63,918 bases of DNA, filler included, from an uncultured bacterium (GCA_964372275.1; 3 parts of 3 records of this genome joined end to end with filler, not necessarily neighbours in it); one strand, 5' to 3'. Counted from the first letter of the whole stretch, positions 9,884 through 53,613 are shown. Notes: generated by a model not told the origin, from the sequence alone. Program-made: numbers and translations.

Positions 9884-10384
<501 letters not shown>

Positions 10385-10397
10385 GGGACGCGCATCT

Positions 10398-10426
10398 TTG
10401 CACGCGAAACGGGGACGCGCTAGGGT
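10398..10426 (+). promoter_or_regulatory. Putative sigma70-type promoter for the 10437 gene
   Basis: TTGCAC-N17-TAGGGT. Confidence 0.45.
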
Positions 10427-10436
10427 GTGGCACGCC

Positions 10437-10916
10437 ATGAGCCGACGGCGCGAAGGCCGAGACCACTACGACCGCCCCTCCTGGAGCGAGATCGACAAGC
10501 GGCGGGGGAAGAAGGGGACCGCCGCCCCCTCCCGACCGCCCCCGGAGCCGAACCGTTACCAGCAGAAGGTGATGGACGAGAAGTTCCACAGCCTCTTCGT
10601 CGATCCGAAGAAGGAGGCCGCCCTCAAGAAGGTCCGGGAGGAGGTGGGGAAGGAGGGGTTCGTTGCGGCGCTCGACGCCTACCACGCCTCGTACGGCCTT
10701 CCCGACGAGTACGATCTCCTGCAGGTGGTGCTCGAGGCCCACCACGCGCCGGCGTTGCGGGTCGCGGCCCTGGAACGGATGGACCAGTCGGTCGACGCGC
10801 AGGCGGAGTCGACGCGAACCGTCTTCAGGAGCCGGGTGAAGCTCCTGGCGCTGACGGCGCGCGAGCCGGCGGTCAAGAAGGCGGCGTCGCGAATCGCCAA
10901 GGCCCGCGGTTTCTAG
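10437..10916 (+). CDS. Hypothetical basic helical protein
   Basis: MSRRREGRDHYDRPSWSEIDKRR..., Lys-rich, coding-like codon usage. Confidence 0.65.
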   Translation: MSRRREGRDHYDRPSWSEIDKRRGKKGTAAPSRPPPEPNRYQQKVMDEKFHSLFVDPKKEAALKKVREEVGKEGFVAALDAYHASYGLPDEYDLLQVVLEAHHAPALRVAALERMDQSVDAQAESTRTVFRSRVKLLALTAREPAVKKAASRIAKARGF

Positions 10917-10932
10917 CGGCGCGGCGAGGCCC

Positions 10933-12351
10933 ATGGAGATCCGACGGGCGGATCGGCGGCGCCATCTGGTCTACCAGATCTTCGTCGATCGTTTCGCCGG
11001 TCCGGAGGGGCGGCCGCTGCCGGCGCCGCCCGACGGCGTCGATCCCTGGCGCCATCACGCCGGGGGTACGCTCGACGGGATCGCGCACCGGCTCGACCAC
11101 CTGGCGTCGCTGGGTGTCGATCTCCTCTACCTCACGCCGATCTTCCGCGCCCCGTCGAACCACAAGTACGACACCGCGAGCTTCGAGGAGGTCGATCCGC
11201 GATTCGGCGGAGAGGCGGCGTTCGACCGACTGGCGGGGGCGGCGCGCGAGCGCGGGATCGGGCTCGTGCTCGACGGCGTCTTCAACCACGTGGGGGAGGA
11301 GCACGGCTGGTTCCGCGACGCGTGCCGCGCCGCGACCTCGCCGTTTTTCCGGTTCTTCCGATTCGCGCGCCATCCCGACCGCTACGACCGGTGGCGCGGG
11401 ATGGGGTGGCTCCCGGAGCTCGACCTCGCGCGCGACGACGTCCGGCGGGCGCTCGCGGAGAGCGAAGGCGCTCCGTTCCGCCGCTGGCTGCGACGCGGCG
11501 CCACCGGGTGGCGGCTCGACTGCGCCAACGACCTCGGACTCCAGACCTGCGGCCTTCTCGCGCGGATCGCGCGGGAGGAGGGGGCGCCGGACGGCGTCGT
11601 CGGCGAGGTGATGGCCTGGGCCGAGGCGTGGCTGCAGGAAGGGGCGCTCGACGGAGTGATGAACTACTGGATGCGCGAGACGGTGCTGGAGGCAGCGGCC
11701 GGCCGGCTTCCCGCCGCCCAGGTCGCGTCGAACCTCGGGCGGATGGCGGAGTCGTGGCGGTGGCCCGCGCTGCTCCGAAGCTGGAACGTGCTCGCCACCC
11801 ACGACACGCCGCGCCTCGCCACGCGCCTCCCCGACCGCCGCGCCCGCCGGCTCGCGCGCCTCTTGGCCTTCACGCTCCCCGGAACGCCGCACCTCTACTA
11901 CGGCGAGGAGATCGGGATGGAGGGGGGCGACGATCCGGCGAACCGGAACCCGATGGAATGGGACGACGCACGCTGGGACCGCGAGACGTTGGAGGAGACG
12001 CGGACGCTCGCTCGGCTGCGCCGCGAGCGCGTCGCGCTGCGGGAGGGTCGCTTTCTTCCGATGCCGCAGCCGGGCCTGCCCTGGCTGTTCGCCTTCGCGA
12101 GGGTCACCGAACATCCGGAGGAGGCGACGCTGGTCGCGGTGAACCTGTCGGGAACGCCGCAGCGGGGTCGCGCCTTCCTCCCGTATTCGTGGTTCCTCGA
12201 CGCCCTCCCGCTGGCCGACCGGTGGGGCGGCACCGCGGGCGGAAAGGTGACGGGCGGGGCGGTGGAGATCGCGTTGGAGCCGTGGCAGGGGGTGGTGTGG
12301 GTGCCGGAGGACGGGGCGATCGAGGGATACCGCTTTTTCAAGCGGACGTGA
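10933..12351 (+). CDS. Glycoside hydrolase family 13 (neopullulanase/cyclomaltodextrinase/maltodextrin glucosidase-like)
   Basis: YQIFVDRF, SNHKYDT, LDGVFNH; catalytic motifs GWRLDCAN, VGEVM, THDTPR; YYGEEIG. Confidence 0.92.
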   Translation: MEIRRADRRRHLVYQIFVDRFAGPEGRPLPAPPDGVDPWRHHAGGTLDGIAHRLDHLASLGVDLLYLTPIFRAPSNHKYDTASFEEVDPRFGGEAAFDRLAGAARERGIGLVLDGVFNHVGEEHGWFRDACRAATSPFFRFFRFARHPDRYDRWRGMGWLPELDLARDDVRRALAESEGAPFRRWLRRGATGWRLDCANDLGLQTCGLLARIAREEGAPDGVVGEVMAWAEAWLQEGALDGVMNYWMRETVLEAAAGRLPAAQVASNLGRMAESWRWPALLRSWNVLATHDTPRLATRLPDRRARRLARLLAFTLPGTPHLYYGEEIGMEGGDDPANRNPMEWDDARWDRETLEETRTLARLRRERVALREGRFLPMPQPGLPWLFAFARVTEHPEEATLVAVNLSGTPQRGRAFLPYSWFLDALPLADRWGGTAGGKVTGGAVEIALEPWQGVVWVPEDGAIEGYRFFKRT

Positions 12352-12407
12352 CCGCGGGCGGTGGCACGCTGACTTTTCGGTGCCGGCGGGGCTACGCTCT
12401 CGGCGAG

Positions 12408-13499
12408 ATGCGTCGCGCACTTGCCGGGCTCGCCGTCGCCACCCTCGTCTCCTCCTGCTCCCTCGAGTCGCTCGACCCCTTCCACACCCAGTTCGACGAC
12501 GTCGAGCCGGCCAAGCGCTACTACCGGAGCACGCCCGTACCCGCGCCGGGAGTCGTCACGACGCTCACGGTGATGAGCTGGAACGTGAAGTTCGGCGGCG
12601 GGCGGATCGACTTCTTCTGGGACTGCCACGGCGACCGCACCAACATGTCGCGCGGCGAGGTGCTCTCCAACCTGGAGGCGCTGGCGGAGAAGATCGAGCA
12701 GGTCGATCCCGACATCCTGTTGCTGCAGGAGGTCGACGTCGAGTCGAAGCGCTCGGACTACCTCGACCAGGTGCAGTGGCTGCTCGACCACGGCCGGCTC
12801 AACGAAGGGGCCTACGCCTCGCAGTGGAAGGCCGACTACGTCCCCGGCGACGGGATCGGACGGGTCGACTCCGGGAACGCCGTCTTCTCCCGCTGGCCGA
12901 TCAACTGGGCGTTGCGCCACTCGCTGCCGTTGATCGCCTCCGACGACGCGCTCACCAACTACTTCTACCTGAAACGGAACATGCTCGAGGTGAGCGTCGA
13001 CCTGCCGGGCCTCGACGACTTCCGGATCGTCGCCACGCACACCGAGGCCTACGCCGACGACGGGACGAAGAAGAAGCACGTCGACCGGTTCAAGGCCAAG
13101 CTCGACGAGCTCGCCGCCGAGGGGGTCCTGTTCATCGCCGGCGGCGACCTCAACACCCTTCCTCCGGGAAGCGAGCAGGTGAGCGACTTTCCCGATTCGG
13201 TCTGCGAGGGGCGCTTCGAAGGGGACGACTTCAGCGAGGAGACCGACTACCTCTATCCGCTCTACCAGACCTACGAGGCGGAGACGCCGCTCGCCGACTA
13301 CCTGGCCGACAACGATCCCTACTTCACCTTCACCTCCGACAAGAACGGGTTCTGGAGCCGCAAGCTCGACTACCTGTTCACCAACGGCGACTTCGTGCCT
13401 GGCAGCTCGATCACCCATCAGGACGAGGAGTCGGGCGGTATGGAGACGATGAGCCGGTCGGACCATGCGCCGATCAGCGTGGAGCTCGACCTGCCGTGA
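12408..13499 (+). CDS. Endonuclease/exonuclease/phosphatase (EEP) family lipoprotein
   Basis: Lipobox LVSSC; MSWNVK, LLQEVD, GNAVFSRWP, ATHTEA, GGDLN, KLDYLF, SDHAP. Confidence 0.9.
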   Translation: MRRALAGLAVATLVSSCSLESLDPFHTQFDDVEPAKRYYRSTPVPAPGVVTTLTVMSWNVKFGGGRIDFFWDCHGDRTNMSRGEVLSNLEALAEKIEQVDPDILLLQEVDVESKRSDYLDQVQWLLDHGRLNEGAYASQWKADYVPGDGIGRVDSGNAVFSRWPINWALRHSLPLIASDDALTNYFYLKRNMLEVSVDLPGLDDFRIVATHTEAYADDGTKKKHVDRFKAKLDELAAEGVLFIAGGDLNTLPPGSEQVSDFPDSVCEGRFEGDDFSEETDYLYPLYQTYEAETPLADYLADNDPYFTFTSDKNGFWSRKLDYLFTNGDFVPGSSITHQDEESGGMETMSRSDHAPISVELDLP

Positions 13500-15006: not shown

Positions 15007-15846
15007 GTGCGCATTCGAAGCGACGTGATCCACGTCGGTACCAGCGGCTACGCCTACCCCCACTGGAGCGAGGTCCTGTATCGCGGCGTCCCGACCTCGC
15101 GCCGGCTGGAACGCTACGCGCGCGAGTTCTCCACCGTCGAGATGAACGCCACCTTCTACCGCCTTCCGACGCCGGCGGCGGCAACCCGTTGGCGCGATGC
15201 CACCCCGGACCGGTTCGTCTTCGCCGTCAAGGGGAGCCGGTTCCTGACGCACATGAAGCGCCTGACCGACACCGGTCGCGGTCTCGACCGCTTCTTCTCG
15301 AGGGTCGACCACCTGGGACCGAAGCTGGAGGTCGTCCTCTGGCAGCTGCCGCCGCAGATGGCCCACGTCGATCCCGGCCGGCTGGAACGGTTCCTGCTCG
15401 CGCTGCCGGGGGGCGTCCGGCACGCGGTCGAGTTCCGGCACGAGGCCTGGTATCGCGACGAGGTGGCCCGTCTGCTCGATCGTCACGGCGTCGCCTTCTG
15501 CGAGCACGACCTCGTCGACGCGCGCCCGCCGCGCGCGACCGGCGGATTCCGCTACCTGCGCTTCCACGGCGCGAGCGCTCCCTACGCCGGCCGCTACGGA
15601 AGGCGCGCGCTGGAGCCGGTCGCCCGGGGACTGCGCGCATGGTCCCGATCCGGACGGACCGCCTACGTCTACTTCAACAACGACACCGGTGGTCACGCCG
15701 TGCGCGATGCGCGCGCGCTGCGGGAGTTGCTCGGTCCCGCGGCCTACCGGGCGTCGAGCCAGCCGTCCAGGAACGCCGCCCGCGCCGCCGTCGCCGCGCG
15801 GATCGAGTCGTGCGCCGCGTGGAACTCGTCGAGCGTGAACGGATAG
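15007..15846 (+). CDS. DUF72 (YecE-like) protein
   Basis: IHVGTSGYAY, VEMNATFYRLP, FAVKGSRFLTH, LWQLPP, VEFRH..W, YLRFHG, YVYFNND; start may be GTG 15025. Confidence 0.92.
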   Translation: MRIRSDVIHVGTSGYAYPHWSEVLYRGVPTSRRLERYAREFSTVEMNATFYRLPTPAAATRWRDATPDRFVFAVKGSRFLTHMKRLTDTGRGLDRFFSRVDHLGPKLEVVLWQLPPQMAHVDPGRLERFLLALPGGVRHAVEFRHEAWYRDEVARLLDRHGVAFCEHDLVDARPPRATGGFRYLRFHGASAPYAGRYGRRALEPVARGLRAWSRSGRTAYVYFNNDTGGHAVRDARALRELLGPAAYRASSQPSRNAARAAVAARIESCAAWNSSSVNG

Positions 15847-16940
15847 TTCGGGTCGGACTCGACGGCCGCTTCGATCTGCGCCGCGAACCGGCCGATCTTC
15901 TCGTCGATCGCCGCCGGATTGTAGACGGCGCGGACGGCGGCGACGGCGTCGACGAACCGCTGGCGCCATACGGGGTCGGCGAGCACGGCGACCTGGTGCG
16001 GCGGCAGACCGGACAGCTCCTCGCCGTACTCGTCGTAGTAGACGACGCCGTACGGATCGGCATCGGCCGGCATCCAGTCGAACGTTCCGTCCTTGTCCCA
16101 GGGGACGAAGAGGAAGCCGCGCTGCGGATGGTCGTAGAGGTAGAAGTTGTGTCCGGCGCTCCAGTAGCCGTCCGCGTCGGGCAGCGTCGCCTCGGCCGCC
16201 CACTCGAGGACGGCGCCTTCCAGATCGGCGAGGGCGTCGATCGCCGCGACGTCGTTCGCCTGCCAGAACTGCTCGATCCGCACGCCGTCGGAGGTCTGTT
16301 CGTTGGTCTTGAGGTCGGTTCCGTACTTCCACAGGTCCCCGCCGGCCTGGCCGGGGAAGTTCCGCTGGAGGAACTCCTTGTCCAGGAACTCGATGTTGGT
16401 GAAGACGCCGTAGAGCGATCCGTTCAGGGTGAGCGTCGCGCTGTTGGCGCACGCGGCCGGGAGGCCGACCTCCCGGAACAGGTCGAGCGCGAGGCGGTCC
16501 TTGAGCAGCGACGGGTCGTAGGGCGGCGCGTCGAGCGCGATCTTGCGCAGTCCGTGGAAGCGCGCGTCGGAGTCGACTTCGTTGAACGAGATCACGAACT
16601 GCATCTTTCCGGACCAGGAGCAGCAGGGGTTCCCCTTGAGGCGCATGCGGGCGTCGGGGACGACCTCCTCCTCGCCGTCGGGTCCGACGTAGCGGAAGAG
16701 GATGGGGTGGTACGGCTTGAGCGGCAGTCCGTTCGCCTCCCGCTCCGCCCAGTTCGCGAACTCGTCCTGGAGCGCCGCCCACTCGCCGTCGGCGATCTCG
16801 ACCCGGTAGTCGACGAGCCGGTCCTCGTCGTAGAGGTCGGCGCAGCGGCCGGCGGGGACCGCCCCCCCCGGCGGGTCGAGCGAACCGCATGCGGCGACCA
16901 GCAGCGGAACGACGATCGCGCAACCCGATGGCCGAGCCAT
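15744..16940 (-). CDS. CotH-family protein kinase, lipoprotein (paralogue 1)
   Basis: Lipobox LVAAC; RLKGN, KIALD, LYGVFTNIE, DGYWSAGHNFYLY, VPWDKD; GGGAGGGG RBS. Confidence 0.85.
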   Translation of the reverse strand: MARPSGCAIVVPLLVAACGSLDPPGGAVPAGRCADLYDEDRLVDYRVEIADGEWAALQDEFANWAEREANGLPLKPYHPILFRYVGPDGEEEVVPDARMRLKGNPCCSWSGKMQFVISFNEVDSDARFHGLRKIALDAPPYDPSLLKDRLALDLFREVGLPAACANSATLTLNGSLYGVFTNIEFLDKEFLQRNFPGQAGGDLWKYGTDLKTNEQTSDGVRIEQFWQANDVAAIDALADLEGAVLEWAAEATLPDADGYWSAGHNFYLYDHPQRGFLFVPWDKDGTFDWMPADADPYGVVYYDEYGEELSGLPPHQVAVLADPVWRQRFVDAVAAVRAVYNPAAIDEKIGRFAAQIEAAVESDPNYPFTLDEFHAAHDSIRAATAARAAFLDGWLDAR

Positions 16941-16969
16941 GGCATCCCCTCCCTTCTTCTTCCAAGGGG

Positions 16970-16985
16970 AGCAAGGCGCGTGCCT
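16970..16985 (-). promoter_or_regulatory. Putative sigma54 (-24/-12) promoter for CotH paralogue 1
   Basis: Minus strand reads AGGCACGCGCCTTGCT = GG-N10-GC, 30 nt before the ATG. Confidence 0.6.
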
Positions 16986-17027
16986 GGCGTCCGGCCGGCG
17001 GAGGTCCATCCTCCGTGCGGAGGTTCC

Positions 17028-17432
17028 ATGGCGATCGACTACTCCACCGACGACCTGCGCCGAAAGCTGGCCGATTCGCGCGATCGGTTCGCGCTGGTCG
17101 ACACCTTGCCGCGCGCCTCGTACGCCAACCGACACCTTCCGGGGGCGATCTCCCTTCCGCTCGAAGAGATCGAGGCGCGGGCCGACGCGATCCTTCCCGA
17201 ACGCGATGTCGAGGTCGTGACCTACTGCAGCGGGCCGACCTGAACGCGCTCGACGCAGGCCGTGCGCCTGCTGGAAGCGAAAGGGTATCGGCGCCTCGGC
17301 CACTACGGCGGCGGAATCCGGGAGTGGCGCCGCGCCAACCTTCCGTTCGACACCGGACGCGAGCGGAGCCTCCGGCCCGAGGAGCGTCGCGTCGCGGAGG
17401 GGCCGGCGGCGCCGGAGCGACCGGTGCCGTAG
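17028..17432 (+). CDS. Rhodanese-domain protein, probable selenoprotein (UGA at codon 72, 17241-17243, read as Sec), 134 aa
   Basis: GGAGG RBS; LVDTLP...Y..RHLPGAISLP...VVTYCSGPT-UGA-TRSTQAVRLLEAKGYRRLGHYGGGIREW..ANLP: the rhodanese domain continues in frame past the UGA to a TAG. Confidence 0.85.
17255..17271 (+). promoter_or_regulatory. Candidate bacterial SECIS hairpin
   Basis: GCAGGC-CGUGC-GCCUGC stem-loop starting 11 nt after the UGA; G at loop position 2 followed by U. Confidence 0.65.
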
Positions 17433-17531
17433 GGGCCCGGAGAACGACGCGGGTGACGCGTTTCGGGTTTCGCGTCGTCCAAGATGGAGGATATCGCGCA
17501 CCCTTCGGTCGCGTGATGGCCGGCACGACGC

Positions 17532-17599
17532 GGAGTCCCGCGACGCCGTTGGAGTCCCGACGCCGCGCCGACCTCCGTCGCTGGAGTCCCGACCCCGCG
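17532..17599 (+). repeat. Three direct repeats of GGAGTCCCG (candidate enhancer-binding-protein sites)
   Basis: Copies at 17532, 17551 and 17583; copies 2 and 3 extend to TGGAGTCCCGAC(G/C)CCGCG (17/18 identical), 32 bp apart. Confidence 0.6.
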
Positions 17600-17696
17600 G
17601 TCCGCGCGTGACGGCGCGCACGCGCTGGAGCCGCCGGCCTCCGATCGGACGACGGCCACGTGGCGGTCCGCACGATCGCCGGCCGGAGCCGGCGTC

Positions 17697-17712
17697 CGGC
17701 GCGACGGTTGCA
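17697..17712 (+). promoter_or_regulatory. Putative sigma54 promoter for the VTC operon
   Basis: CGGCGCGACGGTTGCA = GG-N10-GC with TTGCA at -12, about 28 nt before the ATG and GGGAGGG RBS. Confidence 0.55.
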
Positions 17713-17740
17713 CTTCCCTCGAGAGCGGGAGGGACGGGCG

Positions 17741-18496
17741 ATGGCGATGCCGGCGGTGGAGAGCGAGCTTCCGGAGCGCGAGAGCAAGTTCGTCGTGACG
17801 GCGGAGACGCTGGACGACTTCCTGGCGCGGGCCGACGGGAACCTGGTGGAGTTCGCGTACGACCGGAGCCGTCCGGTCGCGTGGACGCGCACCACCTACC
17901 TCGACACCGACGACCTGTTCTTCTATCGGCGCTCCCTGCGCGGCGCGGCGCGCCGCCTCCGCATCCGCGAGTACGCCTCCTCGACGAGCGTGCGCGGTCC
18001 GGCGCGGCTCACCGGTCATTGCCGGCTGGAGCTGAAGGTGAGCGAAGGGGAGGGGCGCCGCAAGGTGGCCTACGAGGCGCCGGCGGAGGCGATCGCGGAA
18101 CTGGTGGAGCGCCAGGGTGACCTCGATGCCCGGTGGGACGCCTTCCTCGCTCCGTCGACCGCGCTGGCCGCCTTCCGGCGGGAGCTCCGTCTCCTCCGCC
18201 CGACGCCGCGGTTGACCGTCTTCTACCGCCGGCGGTCGTTCCGAGGCGCCGGCGGCGCCGTCCGCGTGACGCTCGACGAGGACGTCTCCTTCTGCCTGCC
18301 GACCGGCGTCGGGCGTGCGGGGGAGGCGGCCCGCCCGGACCACGAAGTGGGCTGCTTCCGACGGGGGATCCTGGAAGTGAAGTGCCTGGAGGGGGAGGCG
18401 CCCGACTGGCTCGTCGCGGCGATGGAGGACCTTCCGCCGGCGTCGGTCTTCTCAAAATACGTCCTCGGCATGCGCCGGATCGTGGGGACGCCGTGA
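17741..18496 (+). CDS. VTC-domain (polyphosphate polymerase-like, CYTH tunnel fold) protein
   Basis: RESKF (ExK), TTYLDTDDL, RLRIREY, LELK, VFYRRRSF, RVTLD, ILEVK, FSKY. Confidence 0.88.
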   Translation: MAMPAVESELPERESKFVVTAETLDDFLARADGNLVEFAYDRSRPVAWTRTTYLDTDDLFFYRRSLRGAARRLRIREYASSTSVRGPARLTGHCRLELKVSEGEGRRKVAYEAPAEAIAELVERQGDLDARWDAFLAPSTALAAFRRELRLLRPTPRLTVFYRRRSFRGAGGAVRVTLDEDVSFCLPTGVGRAGEAARPDHEVGCFRRGILEVKCLEGEAPDWLVAAMEDLPPASVFSKYVLGMRRIVGTP

Positions 18497-19512
18497 AGTC
18501 GCTGGTCCTCGCGGCGTCGGTCCTCGCGCTCGGCGGGCGCGTCGGCACGCGACAAGGGTTCGAGGCGGTTCCGGCCGGTCCGGCGGCGGCGTCCTCCCCG
18601 TCGTGGGTGGCGGGCGAGCCGCGGTTCGACGCCAAGCTGGAGGCGAGCCTGCGCCTGGCGCGGCTCCGCGCGGTGGTCGAGGCCAAGGCGAAACGCGATG
18701 GCGATCGTGGCGAGCTCGCGCTCGGCGACGCCTTCCTCTCCGCCGACCTCGGGCGCCGCGTCACCGCGCGCGGGGGATCGTTCAAGCTGCCGATCTCGGC
18801 GCTGGACGGCACCTCCTCCTGGACCCTTCCGACGATCCGTCGCGGCGAGATCGCGGCCCTGTTCGGCGATGAGTTCGAGATCGGCGGTCGGCACGTCGGG
18901 GGCGAGGTGGCGTTCGAGCCGCGCGTCGGGGCCCGGCCGTCGGTCCGGATCGGGGTCTGGAACGCGGCGCCGGTCTCGGCGGGGGACGGGACGGCGACGT
19001 CGGGAGAGGTGATCTCCGGCCGGATCGGCGTCTCGCCGGGCCGATTCGATCTCGGGATGTCGGCCGCCTCCCGGAGCGCGGCGGTCGGCGGGAGCCGCTC
19101 GCACTACGACCTGGTCGGAATCGACCTGGCGTTCGACGCGCACGGCGTTCGCGTCTGGACCGAGGCGCTGGGCGGTTCGTCGTGGCTCGACTACGACCCG
19201 GGGGACGGTCGGGACGCCACGATGGCGTCGGCGCGCGCGGTCGTCGCCTACCGGATCGGCGGCCGGTCGGAGCGTGCCGCGTACGTCGAAGCGTGGGGAT
19301 CCGCGGGGATCCTCGACCCGGATCTCGTCATCCGCCGCGATGCGGTCGAGGAGCGGTCGGTCGGTCTCAACGTCGGGCAGTGGCGGGCGTGGCGCGCGCA
19401 GGCCGGGATCGAGGAGCGCCGCCGGGATCGGAACCTGCCCGATGCGCTCGGAGGGAAGGGGCGCGTCGACGTCGACCGAACGGCGCGGGTGCAGCTCGGA
19501 CTCTCGTTCTGA
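18493..19512 (+). CDS. Porin, OprO/OprP (phosphate-selective)-like
   Basis: GTGA overlap; hydrophobic N-terminus; LGDAFL...GSFKLPIS motif typical of Porin_O_P-like barrels; C-terminal VQLGLSF. Confidence 0.6.
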   Translation: MKSLVLAASVLALGGRVGTRQGFEAVPAGPAAASSPSWVAGEPRFDAKLEASLRLARLRAVVEAKAKRDGDRGELALGDAFLSADLGRRVTARGGSFKLPISALDGTSSWTLPTIRRGEIAALFGDEFEIGGRHVGGEVAFEPRVGARPSVRIGVWNAAPVSAGDGTATSGEVISGRIGVSPGRFDLGMSAASRSAAVGGSRSHYDLVGIDLAFDAHGVRVWTEALGGSSWLDYDPGDGRDATMASARAVVAYRIGGRSERAAYVEAWGSAGILDPDLVIRRDAVEERSVGLNVGQWRAWRAQAGIEERRRDRNLPDALGGKGRVDVDRTARVQLGLSF

Positions 19513-19515
19513 CGA

Positions 19516-21315
19516 ATGGCGGAGGGGGCGATGGGGGAGGGTGCGATGTTCGTCGTCTTCGAGGGGATCGACGGCTCCGGCAAGACGACGCTCTCCAACC
19601 GCGTGGCCGCGGCGTTGCGCGCGCGGGGCCTGAGCGTCGAACACGTGCGCGAGGGGGGCGCCTTCCCCTCGAAGGTCGTCGGAGGGATCCGCGACTTCAC
19701 CCGCGAGATGCGGAACGTCGAGCTGGTGCCCGAGGCGGAGCTCCTCCTCTACGCCGCGCGCGAGGCGCAGCTTCTCCGGGAGGTGACCGTCCCGGCGCTG
19801 GCGCGCGCGGAGGTGGTGATCGCCGACCGGTTCGTCTACACGGCCGAGGTGCTGGCGCGGCACGGCCGCGGGCTGCCGGCGGAGCGGGTCGCCCCGGTGG
19901 TCGAGGCCGCCGCAGGAGGCATCGAGCCGGCGCTGGTGGTGCTGGTCGACGTCGACCCGCTGATCGCCCGGATCCGGCGGAAGGTGTCGAAGATCGTCCA
20001 ACCCGATCCACGGCCGGCCTCGCGCAAGGGCCTCTCGGGCCGAGGTCTCCAGAACCGTCTCCGCGAGGGGTACCGGGAGATGGCGGCGCGCCGCGGATGG
20101 ACGGTGGTGGAGAACACCGACCGGCCGCTCGACGAGACCGAACGGTTCGTCGTCGAGCGGATCCTCGCCGCGCGGGGTCCGGCGCGGAACGAGGCGGCGT
20201 CGTTCGCGTCCCCGCCGCGTTCGTCCGACGGCCGGGCGGGCGGCGTCCGGTCGGAGGCCGACGCGCTCGAGCGCTTCGTCGACTGGATCGACCGCCGAGC
20301 GGCGCAGGAGGCGCCGTTGGCGGCGGCCCTCCTCGCAGGACTGGCCGGGCCGGCCGTCGACGCGCGCCGCGAGCGGCTCGCCGAAGTCTCGCCGGCGGTG
20401 ATCGCCAACGGGATCCGCGGGATGACCGACCCCGTCTCCTGGCGCCTCCGCCGCGCGCTCGCGGAGCGCGTTCCCGGCGCCGTCGCCCGGTCGCTGGCGG
20501 GGCGCGCCTTCTTCGACGCCGAGGCGGGACGGCTGCGCGGGCGGCTTTCGGCCGTCGCCCCGTCGGAGGTGCTGCATTCGATCGACGGGCGGGATACCGA
20601 CGAGAGCTGGGCGCTCCGCGAGGGCTTGTTCGGGGCGGCGCCGGCCTCGGCGGTCGGTTCGCTCAAGAGGTTGGCAGGGGGACGTGCGTGGGCGATGCGG
20701 GAACGCTGGATCGCCGAGCGCGGCGGAACGGAGGCGATGCGCGAGACCCTGACGGCGACCGTCGCCGCCCGGTCGGTCACCGCGCTCGACGACGATCGCG
20801 CGTGGGAGATCCGCGACCTCGCCCTGGAGGCGGCGCCGGCCGCGACGATCGAGTCGCTGGCGGGCGTCGCCTCCGAACGGTCCTGGGCGCTGCGCCGGCG
20901 GTTCCTGGAGGTCGCGCCGAAGCCGGTGATGCGTTCGCTCCTGGGGCTCGACGACCCGCGGGCGACGGCCCTCCGGGAGTCGGTCGCCGATTGCGTGCCG
21001 GAGGCGCTCGACTCGCTGGCGGGACTGGACGGCGCCGACGCGTGGAGATTGCGGCTTTCCGCCTCGGAGCGCTGGCCGGTCTCGGCCGCGATGAGCCTCG
21101 GGGGATTGAAGACCGGGGCGGAAGGCCGGGCTTTCGTCCGGCGCCTCCTCGCCGCGCATCCGGACGAGCCGCTGCTCTGGCGCGCGGCGGCGGCGATCCG
21201 GCTCGCCGACATCCGCGCGGAGCTCGAGGCGGCGATCCATTTCGACGACGAGCGGCCCCGGGTCGAACGGCCGCCGGCGGCGATCGACGCCCCACTTCGG
21301 GAGGAGCGCGCATGA
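19516..21315 (+). CDS. Thymidylate-kinase-like P-loop kinase fused to about 8 helical (HEAT-like) repeats
   Basis: FVVFEGIDGSGKTT, ELLLYAAR, VIADRF; C-terminal repeats of P....SL.G.D...AW.LR; true start may be 19531 or 19546. Confidence 0.85.
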   Translation: MAEGAMGEGAMFVVFEGIDGSGKTTLSNRVAAALRARGLSVEHVREGGAFPSKVVGGIRDFTREMRNVELVPEAELLLYAAREAQLLREVTVPALARAEVVIADRFVYTAEVLARHGRGLPAERVAPVVEAAAGGIEPALVVLVDVDPLIARIRRKVSKIVQPDPRPASRKGLSGRGLQNRLREGYREMAARRGWTVVENTDRPLDETERFVVERILAARGPARNEAASFASPPRSSDGRAGGVRSEADALERFVDWIDRRAAQEAPLAAALLAGLAGPAVDARRERLAEVSPAVIANGIRGMTDPVSWRLRRALAERVPGAVARSLAGRAFFDAEAGRLRGRLSAVAPSEVLHSIDGRDTDESWALREGLFGAAPASAVGSLKRLAGGRAWAMRERWIAERGGTEAMRETLTATVAARSVTALDDDRAWEIRDLALEAAPAATIESLAGVASERSWALRRRFLEVAPKPVMRSLLGLDDPRATALRESVADCVPEALDSLAGLDGADAWRLRLSASERWPVSAAMSLGGLKTGAEGRAFVRRLLAAHPDEPLLWRAAAAIRLADIRAELEAAIHFDDERPRVERPPAAIDAPLREERA

Positions 21316-21965
21316 ACCCGTTCCAGACGATCGCGGACCCGACCCTCGGCGGAATCGACGTTCCGCTCACGGAGATGCTGCTCCGGCTTCTGGTGACCCT
21401 CGCCCTCGCGTCGGCGATCGCCTACCGGCCATGGCGGCGGGCGCTCGCGCAGACGGCACCGCTCTCGGTCGAGACGGCGCAGGCGCAGGTGATCATCGCC
21501 GTCGCCGGCGCGCTGATGGTGATCGTGATCGGCGACAGCACCGCGCGCGCGTTCGGACTGGTTGGTCTCGGCGCCTTCATCCGCTTCCGTTCCGGGATCA
21601 AGGATCCCCGCGACGCGGCGGTCATGTTCGTGATGATCGGCGTCGGGATGGCGACCGGGCTCGGGTTGTTCGCGGTGGCCGCCCTCGCCACCGCCTTCGT
21701 CGGCGGCGTGCTGGTCGCGCTCGACGCCACCGCGGGGCGCCGTCCCCGGACGATGACCGTGGGGATCGACCTGCTCGATCCCGCGGGGGCGCTGGCGGGG
21801 ATCCGCGCCGCGCTCCCCGGCAGCCGCGTGCTGGAGACCGGGGACAAGGGATCGATGGTGCTCGAGGTGGCGACCGACCGATCGCTCGACGCCGAGTCGT
21901 TGCTCGCCACGCTCCGCGATCAGGGCGTCGGCGGGATCCGTCGCGTCTCGCTGTCGAACGACTGA
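21312..21965 (+). CDS. DUF4956 (MgtC/SapB-like) membrane protein
   Basis: ATGA overlap; ARAFGLVGLGAFIRFRSGIKDPRD..VMF..IGVGMATG signature. Confidence 0.88.
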   Translation: MNPFQTIADPTLGGIDVPLTEMLLRLLVTLALASAIAYRPWRRALAQTAPLSVETAQAQVIIAVAGALMVIVIGDSTARAFGLVGLGAFIRFRSGIKDPRDAAVMFVMIGVGMATGLGLFAVAALATAFVGGVLVALDATAGRRPRTMTVGIDLLDPAGALAGIRAALPGSRVLETGDKGSMVLEVATDRSLDAESLLATLRDQGVGGIRRVSLSND

Positions 21966-21981
21966 AGGGAAAGGAACGACC

Positions 21982-23187
21982 ATGTCCGCGAACCGACTCG
22001 TGACCGTCCTGTGGCTCGGCGCGCTCTCCGCCTGCAACGGCCTGACCCCGCCCGGCCTGATCGTGGGCGATGACGACGACGATGACGGAGGCGGCGGCAA
22101 CGGCAACGGCGCGTGCCACGCGATCTACGACCCGGCGCGGTTTCCGACGTTCGAAGTGGAGATCTCCTCCGGCGAGCTCGCCGCCTTGCAGGACGAGTTC
22201 ACCAACTGGCAGCAACGCGAGATCGATGGCCTCCCGCTCAAGCCCTACCACCCGGTCGTCTTCCGCTACCAGGGAGAGTCCTACCCGGACGCCCGGATGC
22301 GGCTCAAAGGGAACCCCTGCTGCTCCTGGTCGGGGAACAAGATGCAGTTCGTCATCTCCTTCAACGAGGTGAATCCGGAGGGGCGGTTCCGGGGGCTGCG
22401 GAAGCTGGCGCTCGACGCGCCGCCGTACGACGCGAGCCTCCTCCACGACCGCCTCGCGTACAGCGTCCTGCGCGATGCCGGACTCCCGGCCGCGTGCGCC
22501 AACAGCGCCAGGCTCGAGATCAACGGCGAGCTCTACGGCGTGTATTCGAACATCGAGTTCCTGAACAAGGATTTCCTGAAGCGGAACTTCCCCGGCAAGG
22601 CGGGGGGGACGCTCTACAAGTACGGCTTCGAGCCGGTCACCAACGAGGAGACCTACGAAGCCGGCCGGCGGGACGCTTTCTGGGCGGCCGCCGATCTCGC
22701 CGAGCTGGACGGGTTGGCCGACCTCGATCGGATCGTCCGGGAGTGGGCGGGGGAGGCGGTGCTGCCGCACGCCGACGGGTTCTGGGCCGGATCGGGGAAC
22801 TTCTACCTCTACGATCACCCGACGCGCGGGTTCCAGTTCGTGCCGTGGGATCTCGACTATTCGTTCGAGCTCGCGCCGGTCGGCGTCGACCCCTTCGCCT
22901 ACACCGTGGAGTGGGGATCGGCACCACCGATGATCGAGATGGTCTTCGCCGACGCCGGTTGGAGGGCGCGCTTCGTCGACGCCGTCGCGGCGGTGCGCGC
23001 GGAGTACGATCCGCAGACGCTCCAGGCGCGGATCGATGCCTGGTCGGCGCAGATCGACACGAGCCTTCGCGCCGATCCGAACAAGCCGTTCAGCGACGAG
23101 GAACACGGCGCGGCGGTCGCGTCGCTGCGCGCCTACGTCGGTGACCGGGCGGCGTTCCTCGACGAGTGGATCGCCGCCAATCGGTGA
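21982..23187 (+). CDS. CotH-family protein kinase, lipoprotein (paralogue 2)
   Basis: Lipobox LSAC, Asp/Gly linker; RLKGN, DGFWAGSGNFYLY, VPWDLD; strongly similar to 15744-16940. Confidence 0.88.
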   Translation: MSANRLVTVLWLGALSACNGLTPPGLIVGDDDDDDGGGGNGNGACHAIYDPARFPTFEVEISSGELAALQDEFTNWQQREIDGLPLKPYHPVVFRYQGESYPDARMRLKGNPCCSWSGNKMQFVISFNEVNPEGRFRGLRKLALDAPPYDASLLHDRLAYSVLRDAGLPAACANSARLEINGELYGVYSNIEFLNKDFLKRNFPGKAGGTLYKYGFEPVTNEETYEAGRRDAFWAAADLAELDGLADLDRIVREWAGEAVLPHADGFWAGSGNFYLYDHPTRGFQFVPWDLDYSFELAPVGVDPFAYTVEWGSAPPMIEMVFADAGWRARFVDAVAAVRAEYDPQTLQARIDAWSAQIDTSLRADPNKPFSDEEHGAAVASLRAYVGDRAAFLDEWIAANR

Positions 23188-23230
23188 GGGTCCCGCCGGC
23201 GGCGGAAGAGTCCATGGTATCGTTTCGTCC

Positions 23231-23704
23231 ATGGGTGTCCGGTCGAGGGGAATTCGCGCGGTCGCCGGTTGGGCGGTCCTGGCGGTGGCCGGATGCGGAG
23301 CGATCGATCGAACGATCGTCAATCCGGTCGACGTGGCGAAGACCCCGCCGGGGTTCTTCGTCACGCGTGGCGATATCGCGCGAGAGCTGTACGAGCCGGT
23401 CGCGGTGCTGCACGGGGAGCGGCGGGGCGTCTACTGGATCGGCATGGTGCCGGTCCTCCGCTCGCGGATCTCCGACGCGATCGAAAAGGGGCTGGTCCGC
23501 GAAGCGCAGAAGCTCGGCGCCGACGGACTGATCCAGATCGAGACGTCCCACCAGCTGCTACCGCCGTTCCCTTACTCGATCGTGACGCTGGGGTTCATGG
23601 CCCGCATCGTCCACGTCGACGCGCTGGCGGTGAAGATGAAGCGTCCCGCCGGCGGTCAGGGGCAGGCGAGCGGTCCGGCCGCGAGCGTCACCGTCACGCC
23701 GTAG
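23231..23704 (+). CDS. Small lipoprotein (YbjQ/heavy-metal-binding-like fold possible)
   Basis: Lipobox VAGC; LVREAQKLGADGLI motif. Confidence 0.6.
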   Translation: MGVRSRGIRAVAGWAVLAVAGCGAIDRTIVNPVDVAKTPPGFFVTRGDIARELYEPVAVLHGERRGVYWIGMVPVLRSRISDAIEKGLVREAQKLGADGLIQIETSHQLLPPFPYSIVTLGFMARIVHVDALAVKMKRPAGGQGQASGPAASVTVTP

Positions 23705-24690
23705 TCGATCGGATAGACGACCGGCCAGGAGAGAGCGGGCCTGGGACCGCGCAGCATCCGGTCGATCATGGCGCTGCCGTCGAACAGGGTCAGGTCGACC
23801 GCGCCGTCGGCGGGGAGGGCGAACGTCTGGCACGGCAACCAGCCGGTCGCGAACGGTACCCCGTCTGGCGCCTGGTAGAGGAAGACCCTCGGATGGCCGT
23901 ACCAGGTCGATCCGCCGTAGCCGGGCTGCGGCGGGAACTCGCCGGTCACCTGGACGCGGACCGTTCCGCCGGCCGTCCCCCCGTCGATCCGAAACCGCCC
24001 GAAGTCGTCGGCGTCGGCGAGCTGGCGGATGGCGGATGGGACGCCGTTCGCCAGCGGCACGATGGCGCTCTCCTCGATCGCGAACCCGCCGTCGAGGAGG
24101 TGATCGACGCCCCGGTCGTGCAGCACGACGTCGTAGGGGCCGGGTGCGGCGTAGAGGTCGGCCTGCAGGAAGAACGAGGCCCGGGTCGGTCCCTCGAGGA
24201 AGAGGTTGTAGAAGCCGGCGACGCCCGCTTCGCTCGAGTAGTAGAGGCTCGGCAGCCAGGAGGTCTCCCGACCCTCGACGTCGAAGTAGTCGAGGGCACC
24301 CTGCCGGAAGGGACGGCTCGTCACCCGCACCCGCGGCACGATCTCGATCGCCGCGAGGCCCGAGACGCGCTCGTCGCCGGAGGCGATCACGAGGTCGACG
24401 CGGCCGGGGGATGCTCCGGCCGGCGCGCGAACCGTGAGCGCCATCTGCTCCGGCCCGGCGACCCGCGGCTCGCCGACCGGCTCCAGGACGTCGCCGACGT
24501 CGACCACCGTCTCCCCCTCACGCCAGTGTGTGAACGAACCGAGGACCCGGATCTCCGCCTCCAGACCGGCGACGATCTGGCGAGGTTCGATCGACACGAT
24601 CGACGGGGGCGGTTCCGAGGTCGTGGGCGCGGACCCGCAGGCCGGGAGCGCGCCGAGCGCCATGCCGATCGCGGCGGAGCGCAGTGTCAT
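23656..24690 (-). CDS. Ig-like (IPT/TIG-like) repeat lipoprotein A2
   Basis: Lipobox LPAC; SIEPRQI...GSFTHW...; QADLYAAPGPYDV; paralogous to 27298-28407. Confidence 0.7.
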   Translation of the reverse strand: MTLRSAAIGMALGALPACGSAPTTSEPPPSIVSIEPRQIVAGLEAEIRVLGSFTHWREGETVVDVGDVLEPVGEPRVAGPEQMALTVRAPAGASPGRVDLVIASGDERVSGLAAIEIVPRVRVTSRPFRQGALDYFDVEGRETSWLPSLYYSSEAGVAGFYNLFLEGPTRASFFLQADLYAAPGPYDVVLHDRGVDHLLDGGFAIEESAIVPLANGVPSAIRQLADADDFGRFRIDGGTAGGTVRVQVTGEFPPQPGYGGSTWYGHPRVFLYQAPDGVPFATGWLPCQTFALPADGAVDLTLFDGSAMIDRMLRGPRPALSWPVVYPIDYGVTVTLAAGPLACP

Positions 24691-26366
24691 TGCGTCTCCA
24701 AGGAGAGCATCCATCCGTGGAGGGTGCGGTCCGGTCCGCCCCAGATGGCGTGCTCGCTCAATCGAAGCGTCCAGGTCCCGTTCGGGTCCTTGCCGCCGAA
24801 GACCGCGTCGAGGTCGGAGGCGGCCGGCGTCACGTCGGGCCAGACGGTCCGGTAGTCGGCCACCTGCCGCGTGTAGTCGAACTCCTGGACGATCGCCTCG
24901 GTCCCGTCGGGCGCGATCAGGGTCACGCGCGTGACGCCGCGGAAGCCGTGCTCCAGGTCCAGTCCGAGGTGGACACGGGAGATCGTCCCGGCGATCCCCC
25001 CGACGGTCATCGTGCGGGAGAAGGTCTCGTTTCCGGAAAAGGTGACGAGCGGCGGATAGGCGATCGCCAATCCGTCGTCGACCACGTGCGTCCCCGGGAT
25101 CGCGTCGATCCCGGTCGTGAGGTCGAACCCGCCTCCATCGCCGCCCTCCGCTTCCGAGACGACCGCGAGCCAGATCCCCTCGCCACGGAGCACCTGGCGG
25201 ACGGTCGACGACCCGCCATCCGGGGATTCGGTCCGTGCGCGCACCGTCATGGTGGCGGGATCGAGCAGGTCGACCGCCGGCGCGAGCGCCGACGCCCCGG
25301 ACTCCGACGAGGCGGTCACCGACAGCACGCTCCACCGCGGGCCGGCATCGCCGATCGCGAAGGCGCCGATCGCCCCCGCCCCCAGCCCCAGGTCCGAGGC
25401 GCCGTCGCCGGCGGCGAGCGGCGTGACCGCGGTCTGCTCCACGTGCAGCGAGTAGGGGAGCGGCGAGGCGCCGAAGACGTAGAAGCTCGGATCGCGCACC
25501 ACCAGGTAGAGATCCTCGGGGGAATCGGCCCAGTCGAACCAATCCCCGTCTTCGAGGAGCTCGTGGACGTACCGGCCGTCGGACGGACGGTAGATCTCGG
25601 TCCAGGCGTAGAGCTGCGGGTTCTCGAGTCGGACCCGCGTCAGCGGGACGCCTGCCGCGGGGACGTGGAAGACGTGGAACTCGCCCCAGAGGTCGATCTC
25701 GTCCTGGGCCGTCGCCCCCGACGGAAGCGATCGGACCTCGACCGGAACGACGGTCAGGGCCCCCCGCGCCGTCTCCCGTGCGCCGCCGCTGGTGAGCGCG
25801 ACATCGCGCGCCCCGGGCTCGGCGAAGAGGTCGACCTTGAGCAGGACTTCGGCGTCGTCCTCGTCGACGACGTAGACGCCGAGCACCAACGCCCCCTCGA
25901 TCGCCGCGTCGGCGCCGAACGACGACCAACGCGTTCCGCGTCCGTGGAGGCGAAGCAGGTTCAGCTCCCCCTGGGCGAGCTCGGTCGTGTCGAATGCGAA
26001 CGGCGGCGCCACCTCGAACGATCCGTCGAGGCGAAGCTCGAGCGAGCCCTGTCGTAGGACGACGTCGCGGGCCCCGTAGGCCGCGTCCTCCGCGGCGGTG
26101 AGCTCGACGGCGATCGAGACCGGACTGGCGACGGTCGCCACCGCGGTGAGCCCGTCGCCGAAGTCGGCGGCGATCGGCCGGGAGGGGTCGAAGTCGGCGA
26201 GCTCGGCGGTGATCCGAACCGACGTCTGGCGGCCGGGGGCGATCCAGTTGGGCTCGACGTCGCGCAGGCGAGGCGCGAGCCCCTCGCCGTCGCCGCCGCA
26301 ACCGGCGGCGACGGCGACGAACGAGGCCGCCGCGACGATCCGCGTACGCCGGTGGCCCGCGCTCAC
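24687..26366 (-). CDS. Ig-like repeat lipoprotein B2 with C-terminal proprotein-convertase P-domain
   Basis: Lipobox AAGC; LDLEH...VTLIAPDGT...FGGKDPNGTWTLRL....LHGWMLSL P-domain; GTGA overlap. Confidence 0.75.
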   Translation of the reverse strand: MSAGHRRTRIVAAASFVAVAAGCGGDGEGLAPRLRDVEPNWIAPGRQTSVRITAELADFDPSRPIAADFGDGLTAVATVASPVSIAVELTAAEDAAYGARDVVLRQGSLELRLDGSFEVAPPFAFDTTELAQGELNLLRLHGRGTRWSSFGADAAIEGALVLGVYVVDEDDAEVLLKVDLFAEPGARDVALTSGGARETARGALTVVPVEVRSLPSGATAQDEIDLWGEFHVFHVPAAGVPLTRVRLENPQLYAWTEIYRPSDGRYVHELLEDGDWFDWADSPEDLYLVVRDPSFYVFGASPLPYSLHVEQTAVTPLAAGDGASDLGLGAGAIGAFAIGDAGPRWSVLSVTASSESGASALAPAVDLLDPATMTVRARTESPDGGSSTVRQVLRGEGIWLAVVSEAEGGDGGGFDLTTGIDAIPGTHVVDDGLAIAYPPLVTFSGNETFSRTMTVGGIAGTISRVHLGLDLEHGFRGVTRVTLIAPDGTEAIVQEFDYTRQVADYRTVWPDVTPAASDLDAVFGGKDPNGTWTLRLSEHAIWGGPDRTLHGWMLSLETQ

Positions 26367-27301
26367 GTCGAGCCCTCGAAGGCGGCGCGTAGCTCGAACG
26401 CGTCGGCCGGCGTGGGGAACTGCGAGAGGTTGCGGACGACGAGCAGGTAGCGCGGATCGGTGGCCGGATCGAGAAGCACGCTCCCTTCCTCGAACGCCAG
26501 GAGCGGCGTGCGCCCGTCCGTTTCGCGGAAGACCTGGACGACGAAATCGTCGAAGCTGGCGGACGCGTCGAGGCGCGCCCGCGGGACGCCGGAAAAGAGA
26601 CGGTAGACGCGGAATGCCAGCCACCCCCCGATCTCCCCGGCGACGGTGTCGCCGAGCGCGATCGACTCGATCGCGACCGGCTCGATCGTGTAGGCCTCGC
26701 GCACCGATTCGGTCGCCTGGACGGTTGTGACGGTGACGTCGCGCGGACCGGGGGCGGCGAACAGGTCGACCTGCACGATCGCCACCGCCTCGTCGTCGCC
26801 GAGGATCGACGCCTGGAGCACGGACGTTCCGGGTCCGAAGTCAAAGGTCGGGCCGTAGGGGGACCACACCGTGCCGCGGCCGAACAGGTGGACGTAGGCG
26901 ATCTCCCCCTGGCGGAGCCGGCCGTACTCGACGTCGAAGGGGGGGACGACCTCGAAGTAGCGGTCGAGGGTAAGGCGACGTTCGTCCTGGGTGACGACGA
27001 CCGTTCGGAGTCCCAGCGCCGCGACGGAGTCGACCGCCGCGTGCACCCGAACCAGGTCCGAACCGAGCGCCACGGCGGTGGTCGCAATGCCGTCCCCCAG
27101 ATCGACGACGACCTCCTTCGACGGATCGAAATCGGCGTATCGGGCGGTGACGACGATCTCGGTGACGCGTCCGGCGACGGCGGAGCGCGGCTCGACGTCG
27201 GCCAGACGCGCGTCGAGCTCGAAGGGGGCGGGACCGCCGCAGCCGGCCAGCGCCACCAGCGCCGGCAGCCATGCCGGCGTCCTCGCGTGTCGTCCGGTCA
27301 C
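26363..27301 (-). CDS. Ig-like repeat lipoprotein B1
   Basis: Lipobox LAGC; RLADVEP...ADFDPS...GDG; VDLFAAPGPRDV; GTGA overlap. Confidence 0.7.
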   Translation of the reverse strand: MTGRHARTPAWLPALVALAGCGGPAPFELDARLADVEPRSAVAGRVTEIVVTARYADFDPSKEVVVDLGDGIATTAVALGSDLVRVHAAVDSVAALGLRTVVVTQDERRLTLDRYFEVVPPFDVEYGRLRQGEIAYVHLFGRGTVWSPYGPTFDFGPGTSVLQASILGDDEAVAIVQVDLFAAPGPRDVTVTTVQATESVREAYTIEPVAIESIALGDTVAGEIGGWLAFRVYRLFSGVPRARLDASASFDDFVVQVFRETDGRTPLLAFEEGSVLLDPATDPRYLLVVRNLSQFPTPADAFELRAAFEGST

Positions 27302-48440: not shown

Positions 48441-49127
48441 ATGGCGAGGCTTCAGAAGGCTGCCTTCTTCCGGGTGGAGGGGACGCTGACCGCGAGGCCG
48501 ACGCTCGCGGCCGCGGCCTGGATGGCGGCGAACGCGCAGGCGATCGGCGACCGCGTCACCCGGCTCGGCAACGTGGCGTTGGCGGTTCCGTTCGCCCTCG
48601 CCGGGCCCTGGCGTGACGCCCGGCTCGCCACCCGCGTCGGCTGGATGGCGCTGCGGGGGATGACCGAGGACCGGCTCTTCGAGTTGGGCCGCGAATATTA
48701 CGACCGCCAGATCGAGCCCCACCTCCGTACGGTCGGCCTGGACCTGATCGCCACCGCCCGCGCCCAGGGGTGCCAGGTCATCCTGATCAGCGATTCATTG
48801 GACGTGATCGTGCGCCCCCTCGCCGACCGGGTCGGCGCGGCGGAGCTGGTCTGCAACCGGCTGGAGATGAAGCGGGGCGGGGCGGGGCAGCCGCCGACGG
48901 CGACCGGGCGTCTGCGGGAGCCGGTCGTCGCGGGGAATCTCTCCGGCCAGTGGGCCCGCGCCTTCGCCGACGAGCGCAAGATCGACCTCGCCGCGTCGTC
49001 GGCGTACGGCGCCCGGGACGAGGACGGCCTGCTGCTGAGCGCCATCGGACGACCGTGCGCCGTGAGCCCCGACCGGCACCTCCGCCGGCTGGCGCGCTCC
49101 CACGACTGGCCGGTGGTGGAAGGATGA
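48441..49127 (+). CDS. HAD-IB (SerB-like) fold protein with degenerate catalytic motifs
   Basis: GGAGG RBS; AAFFRVEGTL, IDLAASSAYG, PCAVSPD..LRR.A...DWPV. Confidence 0.8.
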   Translation: MARLQKAAFFRVEGTLTARPTLAAAAWMAANAQAIGDRVTRLGNVALAVPFALAGPWRDARLATRVGWMALRGMTEDRLFELGREYYDRQIEPHLRTVGLDLIATARAQGCQVILISDSLDVIVRPLADRVGAAELVCNRLEMKRGGAGQPPTATGRLREPVVAGNLSGQWARAFADERKIDLAASSAYGARDEDGLLLSAIGRPCAVSPDRHLRRLARSHDWPVVEG

Positions 49128-53585: not shown

Positions 53586-53613
53586 TCTTTTCGATACCGA
53601 CGAGGAGCGAGAC

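Follow-up and report, generated by a model that had tools for sequence, protein, structure and literature searches.

A VTC, TMK-like kinase and DUF4956 gene unit conserved in Myxococcota, accompanied by a porin and two CotH lipoproteins in one locus

The window analysed here, 63,918 nucleotides (nt) of DNA from an uncultured bacterium (GCA_964372275.1; three parts joined with filler), contains a locus in which genes for a VTC-domain protein, an outer-membrane porin, a P-loop kinase resembling dTMP kinase (TMK), a DUF4956 membrane protein and a CotH-family lipoprotein kinase follow one another on one strand, with a second CotH gene diverging from them. This locus is a myxobacterial version of a widespread VTC-DUF4956(-CotH) neighbourhood, its proteins being distributed over every compartment of the envelope. 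The recurring, conserved unit is VTC, the TMK-like kinase with its C-terminal solenoid, and DUF4956, to which CotH and the porin are accessory. Judged by its motifs, the "dTMP kinase" of the locus is a distinct long form. Tentatively, we propose that VTC, kinase-solenoid, DUF4956 and an exported lipoprotein may form an envelope-spanning phosphate-polymer module, which the porin and CotH would extend in this organism.

Results

Gene content and layout of the locus

G+C content is ~71% across the window, so that long spurious open reading frames (ORFs) are abundant. Genes were delimited by G+C content at third codon positions (GC3; 0.86-0.93 for the operon genes) and then confirmed with Pfam and NCBIfam, yielding the following features (lengths in amino acids, aa).

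15744-16940, minus strand: CotH-A, lipoprotein CotH-family kinase, 398 aa (PF08757, 3e-27), divergent from the operon
17741-18496, plus strand: VTC-domain, Vtc4-like triphosphate tunnel protein, 251 aa (PF09359, 6e-18), without signal peptide
18493-19512, plus strand: OprO/P-family 16-strand outer-membrane porin, 339 aa (signal peptide, C-terminal F, relatives, structure model)
19516-21315, plus strand: long-form TMK-like P-loop kinase with a solenoid of 27-aa repeats (PF02223, 1e-20)
21312-21965, plus strand: DUF4956/MgtC-like membrane protein with ~5 transmembrane segments (PF16316, 29.9 bits)
21982-23187, plus strand: CotH-B, lipoprotein CotH-family kinase, 401 aa (PF08757, 8e-29)
23231-23704, plus strand: orf157, small lipoprotein, 157 aa (GC3 0.87, lipobox VAGC)

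Direct reading of the junctions bore out the tight packing described in an initial annotation of this DNA: the VTC and porin genes share a GTGA overlap, porin and kinase lie 3 nt apart (18 nt with the ATG start of database entry P0277), kinase and DUF4956 share an ATGA overlap, and 16 nt separate DUF4956 from CotH-B. The overlaps imply co-translation. All six families named in that annotation were recovered, by Pfam and NCBIfam or, for the porin, by its relatives and a structure model, and the compartments fit as well, with no signal peptide on VTC or kinase, ~5 transmembrane segments in DUF4956, a signal peptide on the porin and a lipobox in each CotH protein. The divergent second CotH gene indeed lies on the minus strand, and only its start had to be moved from 17621 to 16940: the 625-aa ORF reaching to 17621 is over-extended, its coding periodicity ending at ~16900, and the protein that starts at 16940 opens with a lipoprotein signal (lipobox LVAAC), making CotH-A a lipoprotein as well. 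At its other end, CotH-A overlaps convergently by 103 nt (15744-15846) with the 3′ end of a DUF72 gene (15007-15846, plus strand).

A sixth same-strand gene, orf157, had been missed; it starts 43 nt after CotH-B and is likely a member of the operon. It matched nothing in Pfam or NCBIfam and has no homologue among the 27 related loci described below. A scan of 15500-24000 found no promoters or terminators, repeats in the gap between CotH-A and VTC were unremarkable, and Rfam matched only three tRNAs in the window.

Conservation across related loci

Using a VTC profile, we fetched 27 loci from species-representative genomes, mostly of Myxococcota (L026 and L027 belong to Actinomycetota, L024 to an unclassified bacterium), and searched them over six frames with the window proteins and hidden Markov models. 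A TMK-like gene lies directly downstream of VTC on the same strand in 19 of the 27 (L007 is too short to judge), and the series VTC, TMK-like/solenoid, DUF4956 is complete in 17, L001 being without DUF4956 and the contig of L010 ending after the kinase. These three genes thus travel together across Myxococcota. CotH was counted near VTC in four loci (L021, L023 twice, L026) and stands 10 kb away in L013; the porin family is clear in one (L021), weakly matched in L013 (1.9e-5) and absent from the other 25. The gene set of the window is shared only by Corallococcus coralloides (L021), in the order CotH-VTC-porin-TMK-DUF4956. Conservation of the five-gene order, by which the initial reading was to stand or fall, therefore extends to a single locus, and even there CotH is upstream.

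The position 3′ of DUF4956 is held by a lipoprotein gene in 16 Polyangia-type loci (L001-L003, L005, L006, L008, L009, L011, L012, L014, L015, L017-L019, L022 and L025) and in the window. In the former it encodes a conserved protein of ~250 aa, here termed X250, which is absent from the window, where CotH-B takes its place. X250 also occurs near VTC in Hyalangium (L020:12869-13660, minus strand). Two of its members show a weak DUF3108-like match only, and hhalign found X250 unrelated to CotH and to orf157.

Across the loci, the kinase domain is the best-conserved part (55-64% identity, against 35-46% for VTC). In the kinase tree, the window and Corallococcus sequences are long-branch outliers to a tight Polyangia group; the VTC tree was too poorly resolved to tell whether loci carrying the kinase and loci lacking it are separate clades. 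Outside Myxococcota, the arrangement is CotH-DUF4956-VTC in L026 and VTC-DUF4956 in L024. Glycan genes are found near VTC in L023 (DUF4874/DUF4832), L024 (a sugar transferase and GH10) and L011 (GT2). Most Polyangia loci have no CotH and are flanked by helicases and a sigma-54 two-component pair.

Two of the loci depart from this picture in ways of their own. In L025, from a metagenome-assembled genome, VTC and kinase-solenoid match in several shifted pieces (10001-13207), which indicates frameshifts or assembly errors; the cassette may be decaying there. In L013 (4738-8457), VTC is followed not by the TMK-like gene but by genes for SGL-like and PPDK_N (phosphoenolpyruvate-utilising, ATP-binding) proteins, and the weak porin match and CotH lie 7-10 kb downstream on the other strand.

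The kinase is a long form with an altered nucleoside site

The kinase consists of a kinase domain (residues ~1-225) and a solenoid (~240-575) of about nine 27-aa repeats, each with a conserved Trp and Arg; solenoid self-similarity peaks at an offset of 27, 5.6 standard deviations above the mean of other offsets. Its N-terminal 225 residues align to Thermus thermophilus TMK (5x7j) at 1e-22, and a full-length AlphaFold2 model (predicted local distance difference test, pLDDT, 91; predicted template-modelling score, pTM, 0.89) recovered the same enzyme in Foldseek with target-normalised TM-scores (TMt) of 0.85-0.88. Among the matches listed for the full model there were only TMK-domain ones and no named structural relative of the solenoid, nor did a profile search of the Protein Data Bank (PDB) yield a sequence relative for it. 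The confidence of the whole-protein model suggests that kinase domain and solenoid may be held in a fixed relative arrangement.

With T. thermophilus TMK the protein shares the P-loop EGxDGSGKTT, a DR[FY] motif, the lid and the overall fold. It differs at the nucleoside site, where Tyr99 and Gln100 of 5x7j are replaced by Leu and Ala; Tyr99 is the residue that the depositors of 5xal mutated (Y99F). An alignment of 21 long forms against 17 canonical short TMKs generalises this difference: the nucleoside-site motif DRxxDSxxAYQG reads DR[FY]x[YFH][TS][AP][EQ][VI][LI][AG]x in 21 of 21 long forms, whereas in all 17 short enzymes an aromatic residue paired with a polar one is retained where canonical TMKs have AYQ (AYQG in most). 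In addition, REPGG becomes REGGxFxS with a 2-aa insertion (REGG, or REEG in one of the 21), and the lid is longer and more basic than in canonical TMKs. A C-terminal solenoid of ~350 aa further sets the protein apart from bacterial dTMP kinases, as does a TIGR00041 score half the canonical one (87.6 bits for the window kinase and 91-98 bits for its long-form relatives, against 168-179 bits for canonical short TMKs). Together, these features mark the "dTMP kinase" of the locus as a distinct long form.

This long form is spread across Myxococcota and comprises at least 818 sequence clusters, which the sources name dTMP kinase. That name, as given by annotation pipelines, stems from TIGR00041 scores that exceed the cut-off of 83.25 bits by just 4-15 bits. 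The family is probably misnamed. A search for short TMKs recovered mostly pieces of the long form; the 64-kb window contains no second tmk, and a literature search on tmk in Myxococcus gave nothing of use. A role in a defence system was considered and set aside, PADLOC giving only weak, P-loop-level matches.

The VTC protein and its predicted membrane partner

Identical over its 251 aa to database entry P0007, the VTC protein scores 65.6 bits against PF09359 (cut-off 23 bits); a tblastn comparison with plasmid sequences gave no match. The initial comparison with yeast Vtc4 gained support from a family profile of 27 relatives, which hits this catalytic subunit at 7.5e-12 but the inactive Vtc2/3 at only 3e-3 to 7e-3; the window protein taken alone, without this profile, found no Vtc4 match in the PDB search. 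When positions were counted along the HMMER alignment of the bacterial profile, Vtc4 residues E279, K281, K294, Y359, R361, R373, E426, K428, S457 and K458 fell on columns invariant in all 27 sequences, and R296 on a column conserved in at least 90%. K200 of Vtc4, which we take to be important, lies outside the aligned region. Judged from these residues, polymerase competence of the bacterial enzyme is plausible.

The likeness to the yeast VTC complex thus includes the tunnel catalytic domain (triphosphate tunnel metalloenzyme, TTM), with Vtc4 as best match and most tunnel residues kept, E426 among them, and a cytoplasmic enzyme encoded beside a membrane protein. Unlike the yeast proteins, the bacterial one is a single domain, with neither an SPX sensor domain nor a fused, DUF202-type transmembrane channel domain; its membrane partner is the unrelated, MgtC-like DUF4956 protein, and the equivalents of R264 and R266 are uncertain. 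The absence of a signal peptide means that its product begins in the cytoplasm.

Against PF16316, the DUF4956 protein scores 29.9 bits, just below the cut-off of 30.6 bits, alongside a weak MgtC match; its orthologues scanned in Myxococcota reach 38-45 bits and that of L026 160 bits. Hydropathy indicates ~5 hydrophobic segments followed by a C-terminal soluble domain of ~75 aa, which the positive-inside rule predicts to be cytoplasmic. A basic loop, FIRFRSGIKD, is highly conserved.

The porin and the CotH lipoproteins

The window porin itself has no Pfam match at E<=0.01, and its label derives from family membership and a structure model. Of 40 aligned sequences among its 220 representative relatives, 22 match PF07396 (Porin_O_P; best 1.6e-7), and the Corallococcus orthologue does so at 34.2 bits (cut-off 20.9 bits). 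An AlphaFold2 model (pLDDT 91.4, pTM 0.87) forms a barrel of 16 long strands, for which Foldseek returned OprP (2o4v; E 4.5e-11) with the highest query-normalised TM-score (TMq 0.70) and OprO among the top matches (E 1e-10, TMq 0.65-0.69); the anion porin Omp32 and PorB tie with both on E-value. For the porin, a profile search of the PDB yielded no match. Conserved basic residues occupy 13 positions in at least 80% of family members, and 12 of these positions lie within strands. Relatives, orthologue and barrel model thus agree with the first assignment as OprO/P-like and support membership of the phosphate/pyrophosphate porin family. Compared with Pseudomonas OprP and OprO, with which it shares Porin_O_P at the family level, a modelled 16-strand barrel and many conserved basic residues in the strands, the protein is shorter (339 aa against 411-426 aa) and only 13% identical, and it is encoded with a VTC enzyme instead of with the Pst/Pho regulon.

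CotH-A and CotH-B match PF08757 at 96 and 102 bits, are 57% identical and are both strongly acidic. In CotH-B, the lipobox LSAC is followed by a D/G-rich tether. CotH-B aligns to Bacillus cereus CotH (5jd9) with DGF...N...PWDLD kept, and CotH-A carries DGY...HN...PWDKD. Both proteins thereby retain the two catalytic Asp residues, in DG[FY] and PWDxD, whose equivalence to B. subtilis D228 and D251 we infer from the alignment to 5jd9, the numbering being transferred by the 23-residue spacing, which is the same in that template. Although they resemble the spore-coat CotH Ser kinase of B. subtilis and B. cereus in Pfam family and in these residues, the two proteins are lipoprotein-anchored in a Gram-negative envelope. 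Their lipoboxes place both outside the cytoplasm, as the initial annotation had assumed. No CotB/CotG-like substrates were identified here.

Neighbouring observations in the window

Within the gap between CotH-A and VTC lies a rhodanese-like ORF of 134 codons (17028-17432, plus strand) whose active-site loop contains an in-frame TGA, at 17241-17243 (YCSGPT[TGA]TRS). If the stop is ignored, the translation aligns with PF00581 on both sides of it (3.9e-13), covering model positions 2-101 of 102. The TGA could encode selenocysteine, or it could reflect a pseudogene or an error of sequencing; a hairpin starting ~16 nt beyond it has no folding advantage over shuffled sequence (z 0.54), and the 27 loci hold no homologue of the ORF.

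Three adjacent genes at 24687-28407 (minus strand; 559, 318 and 369 aa) show a weak match resembling quinohemoprotein-amine-dehydrogenase alpha domain III, the first of them also a proprotein-convertase P-domain, and probably encode paralogous secreted proteins. Further along, at 49124-59159 (plus strand), two NAD_binding_4 ('male sterility') reductases, two AMP-binding enzymes, an enoyl-CoA hydratase and an acyltransferase are encoded on the same strand, an arrangement reminiscent of clusters of the fatty-alcohol or ether-lipid type, presumably resembling myxobacterial ether-lipid genes.

Discussion

The available text of Whitfield et al. describes CotH, VTC (there 'PPP'), DUF4956 and DUF4832 as contiguous with pelDEADAFG in streptococci, clostridia and bifidobacteria (bioRxiv 10.1101/768473 / PMC7112168), and VTC-DUF4956 adjacency also in Firmicutes and Actinobacteria (bioRxiv 10.1101/768473). 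Deletion of DUF4956 or CotH in Streptococcus intermedius is reported to lower aggregation by >50% in sputum medium and to alter Pel levels (PMC12345266). The initial statement that such neighbourhoods had no demonstrated function thus needs updating by a Pel-dependent aggregation phenotype, while it holds for biochemistry: in the literature searched we found no demonstrated activity of a bacterial VTC or DUF4956 protein and no description of the kinase-porin variant. According to the available part of that mBio article, its authors found no instance of the triad beyond pel loci; it does occur elsewhere, in the window and in L026. With the pel accessory set, the present locus shares all three families in one place, a CotH predicted to be extracytoplasmic, and a DUF4956 protein with an MgtC-like transmembrane domain and a C-terminal soluble domain. 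It differs in having the TMK-like/solenoid and OprO/P porin genes between VTC and DUF4956, two lipoprotein CotH copies and a diderm envelope. No Pel-type genes are among the Pfam matches across the window. In B. thetaiotaomicron, adjacent DUF4956 and DUF2490 genes appear on one line of an iron-stimulon table (PMC10434189).

In the phosphate-polymer module that we tentatively favour, the VTC enzyme would make a phosphoanhydride product, polyphosphate (polyP) or a short oligophosphate, from nucleoside triphosphate at the membrane, with the kinase-solenoid as a nucleotide-handling or scaffold partner. DUF4956 would receive or translocate this product, much as the Vtc1/3/4 channel is fed by Vtc4; the porin would pass (pyro/poly)phosphate across the outer membrane, and the CotH lipoproteins would phosphorylate envelope or surface substrates. 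Much of what the initial interpretation assumed stands, namely the families, packing, compartments, Vtc4-likeness and porin family, whereas its five-gene conservation does not. PolyP export, and polyP as fuel for CotH in an ATP-free compartment as first proposed, would be inferences at most; because most of the related loci have no CotH, fuelling it cannot be the core function.

Several observations weigh against the module as a whole. Since CotH stands near VTC in only four of the 27 loci and the porin is clear in one, export with surface phosphorylation cannot be what the conserved core does. In the catalytically impaired yeast complex, E426, R264 and R266 were the three residues mutated, according to the text available (PMC9911596); the HMMER alignment places R264 and R266 on non-conserved bacterial columns, and an RxRxR motif invariant among the bacterial sequences is placed opposite Vtc4 R253/R255, 11 residues before them. 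Polymerase competence is thus not established, and going by these columns the enzyme could be a triphosphatase. A profile search of the PDB detected no similarity of DUF4956 to a Vtc1-type channel or to any solved structure, and the available text on S. intermedius reports no phenotype for the VTC deletion, unlike those of DUF4956 and CotH (PMC12345266). OprO and OprP, moreover, are known as uptake channels (PMC9769906). Finally, the kinase passes TIGR00041, is the form found Myxococcota-wide and has no second tmk beside it in the window, and may simply be the housekeeping dTMP kinase.

The direction of flow could be the reverse, although we consider this unlikely: the porin would admit phosphate or pyrophosphate, VTC would polymerise it for storage, DUF4956 would regulate phosphate homeostasis, and the lipoproteins would have a separate envelope role. 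OprP and OprO, phosphate and pyrophosphate channels, are described as induced by phosphate starvation (PMC9769906), MgtC has been tied to the control of phosphate uptake (in the discussion of PMC12345266), the VTC product begins in the cytoplasm, and the S. intermedius preprint, as available, suggests that polyP may remain there. Set against this, Pst, Pho, ppk and ppx genes are absent from the 64-kb window, 25 of the 27 related loci have no porin, and neither the exported lipoprotein gene after DUF4956 nor the kinase-solenoid finds an explanation.

An accessory role in matrix or surface-glycan formation, as beside Gram-positive pel, appears to us improbable to the same degree. Here, CotH would phosphorylate matrix proteins or glycans, VTC and DUF4956 would tune the process, and polyP would not be exported. 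The contiguity with pelDEADAFG and the S. intermedius deletion phenotypes speak for this account; glycan genes also lie near VTC in L023, L024 and L011, and Clostridium perfringens NELoc-2 is listed as combining VTC, a mis-named membrane protein, CotH, a HEAT-repeat protein and a glycosyltransferase (PMC2879425). It fits poorly with the window, which has no polysaccharide synthase or export genes within ~15 kb, and with the majority of Polyangia loci, which lack CotH and keep company with helicases and a sigma-54 two-component pair.

Less likely still is synteny without shared function. On this view the long TMK-like gene would serve simply as the dTMP kinase of myxobacteria, having come to lie between VTC and DUF4956 by inherited chance, and the insertions of CotH and porin would have nothing to do with it. 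Its name in the sources, its TIGR00041 and fold matches and the high conservation of its domain relative to VTC speak for such an enzyme. Against it stand the order and strand preserved in 19 of the 27 loci, including the window and Corallococcus, the long-branch outliers of the kinase tree; the overlaps between the window genes; a nucleoside site that departs from the canonical motif in all 21 long forms aligned; and TIGR00041 scores of 88-98 bits for long forms, compared with 168-179 for canonical TMKs.

PPK2 shares the TMK fold. A bolder extension of the phosphate-polymer module, to which we assign only a slim chance, is that the long Myxococcota "dTMP kinase" might be no thymidylate kinase but, on the model of PPK2, a P-loop kinase handling polyP or oligophosphate, its Arg/Trp-studded solenoid docking it to VTC and DUF4956. 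The three would then form a bacterial counterpart of the VTC complex that passes polymer to the periplasm, and in the window and in Corallococcus porin and CotH would carry the system to the surface, with the polymer as phosphodonor where ATP is lacking.

For genome annotation, the analysis flags the automatic "dTMP kinase" label as resting on a marginal score. Extracytoplasmic CotH kinases raise the question of where their phosphodonor comes from, and bacterial VTC-domain proteins would be a third polyphosphate route besides PPK1 and PPK2. The locus joins a phosphate-type porin, a widespread and probably misnamed kinase family and a known triad of genes in a group of bacteria that is non-pathogenic and partly culturable.

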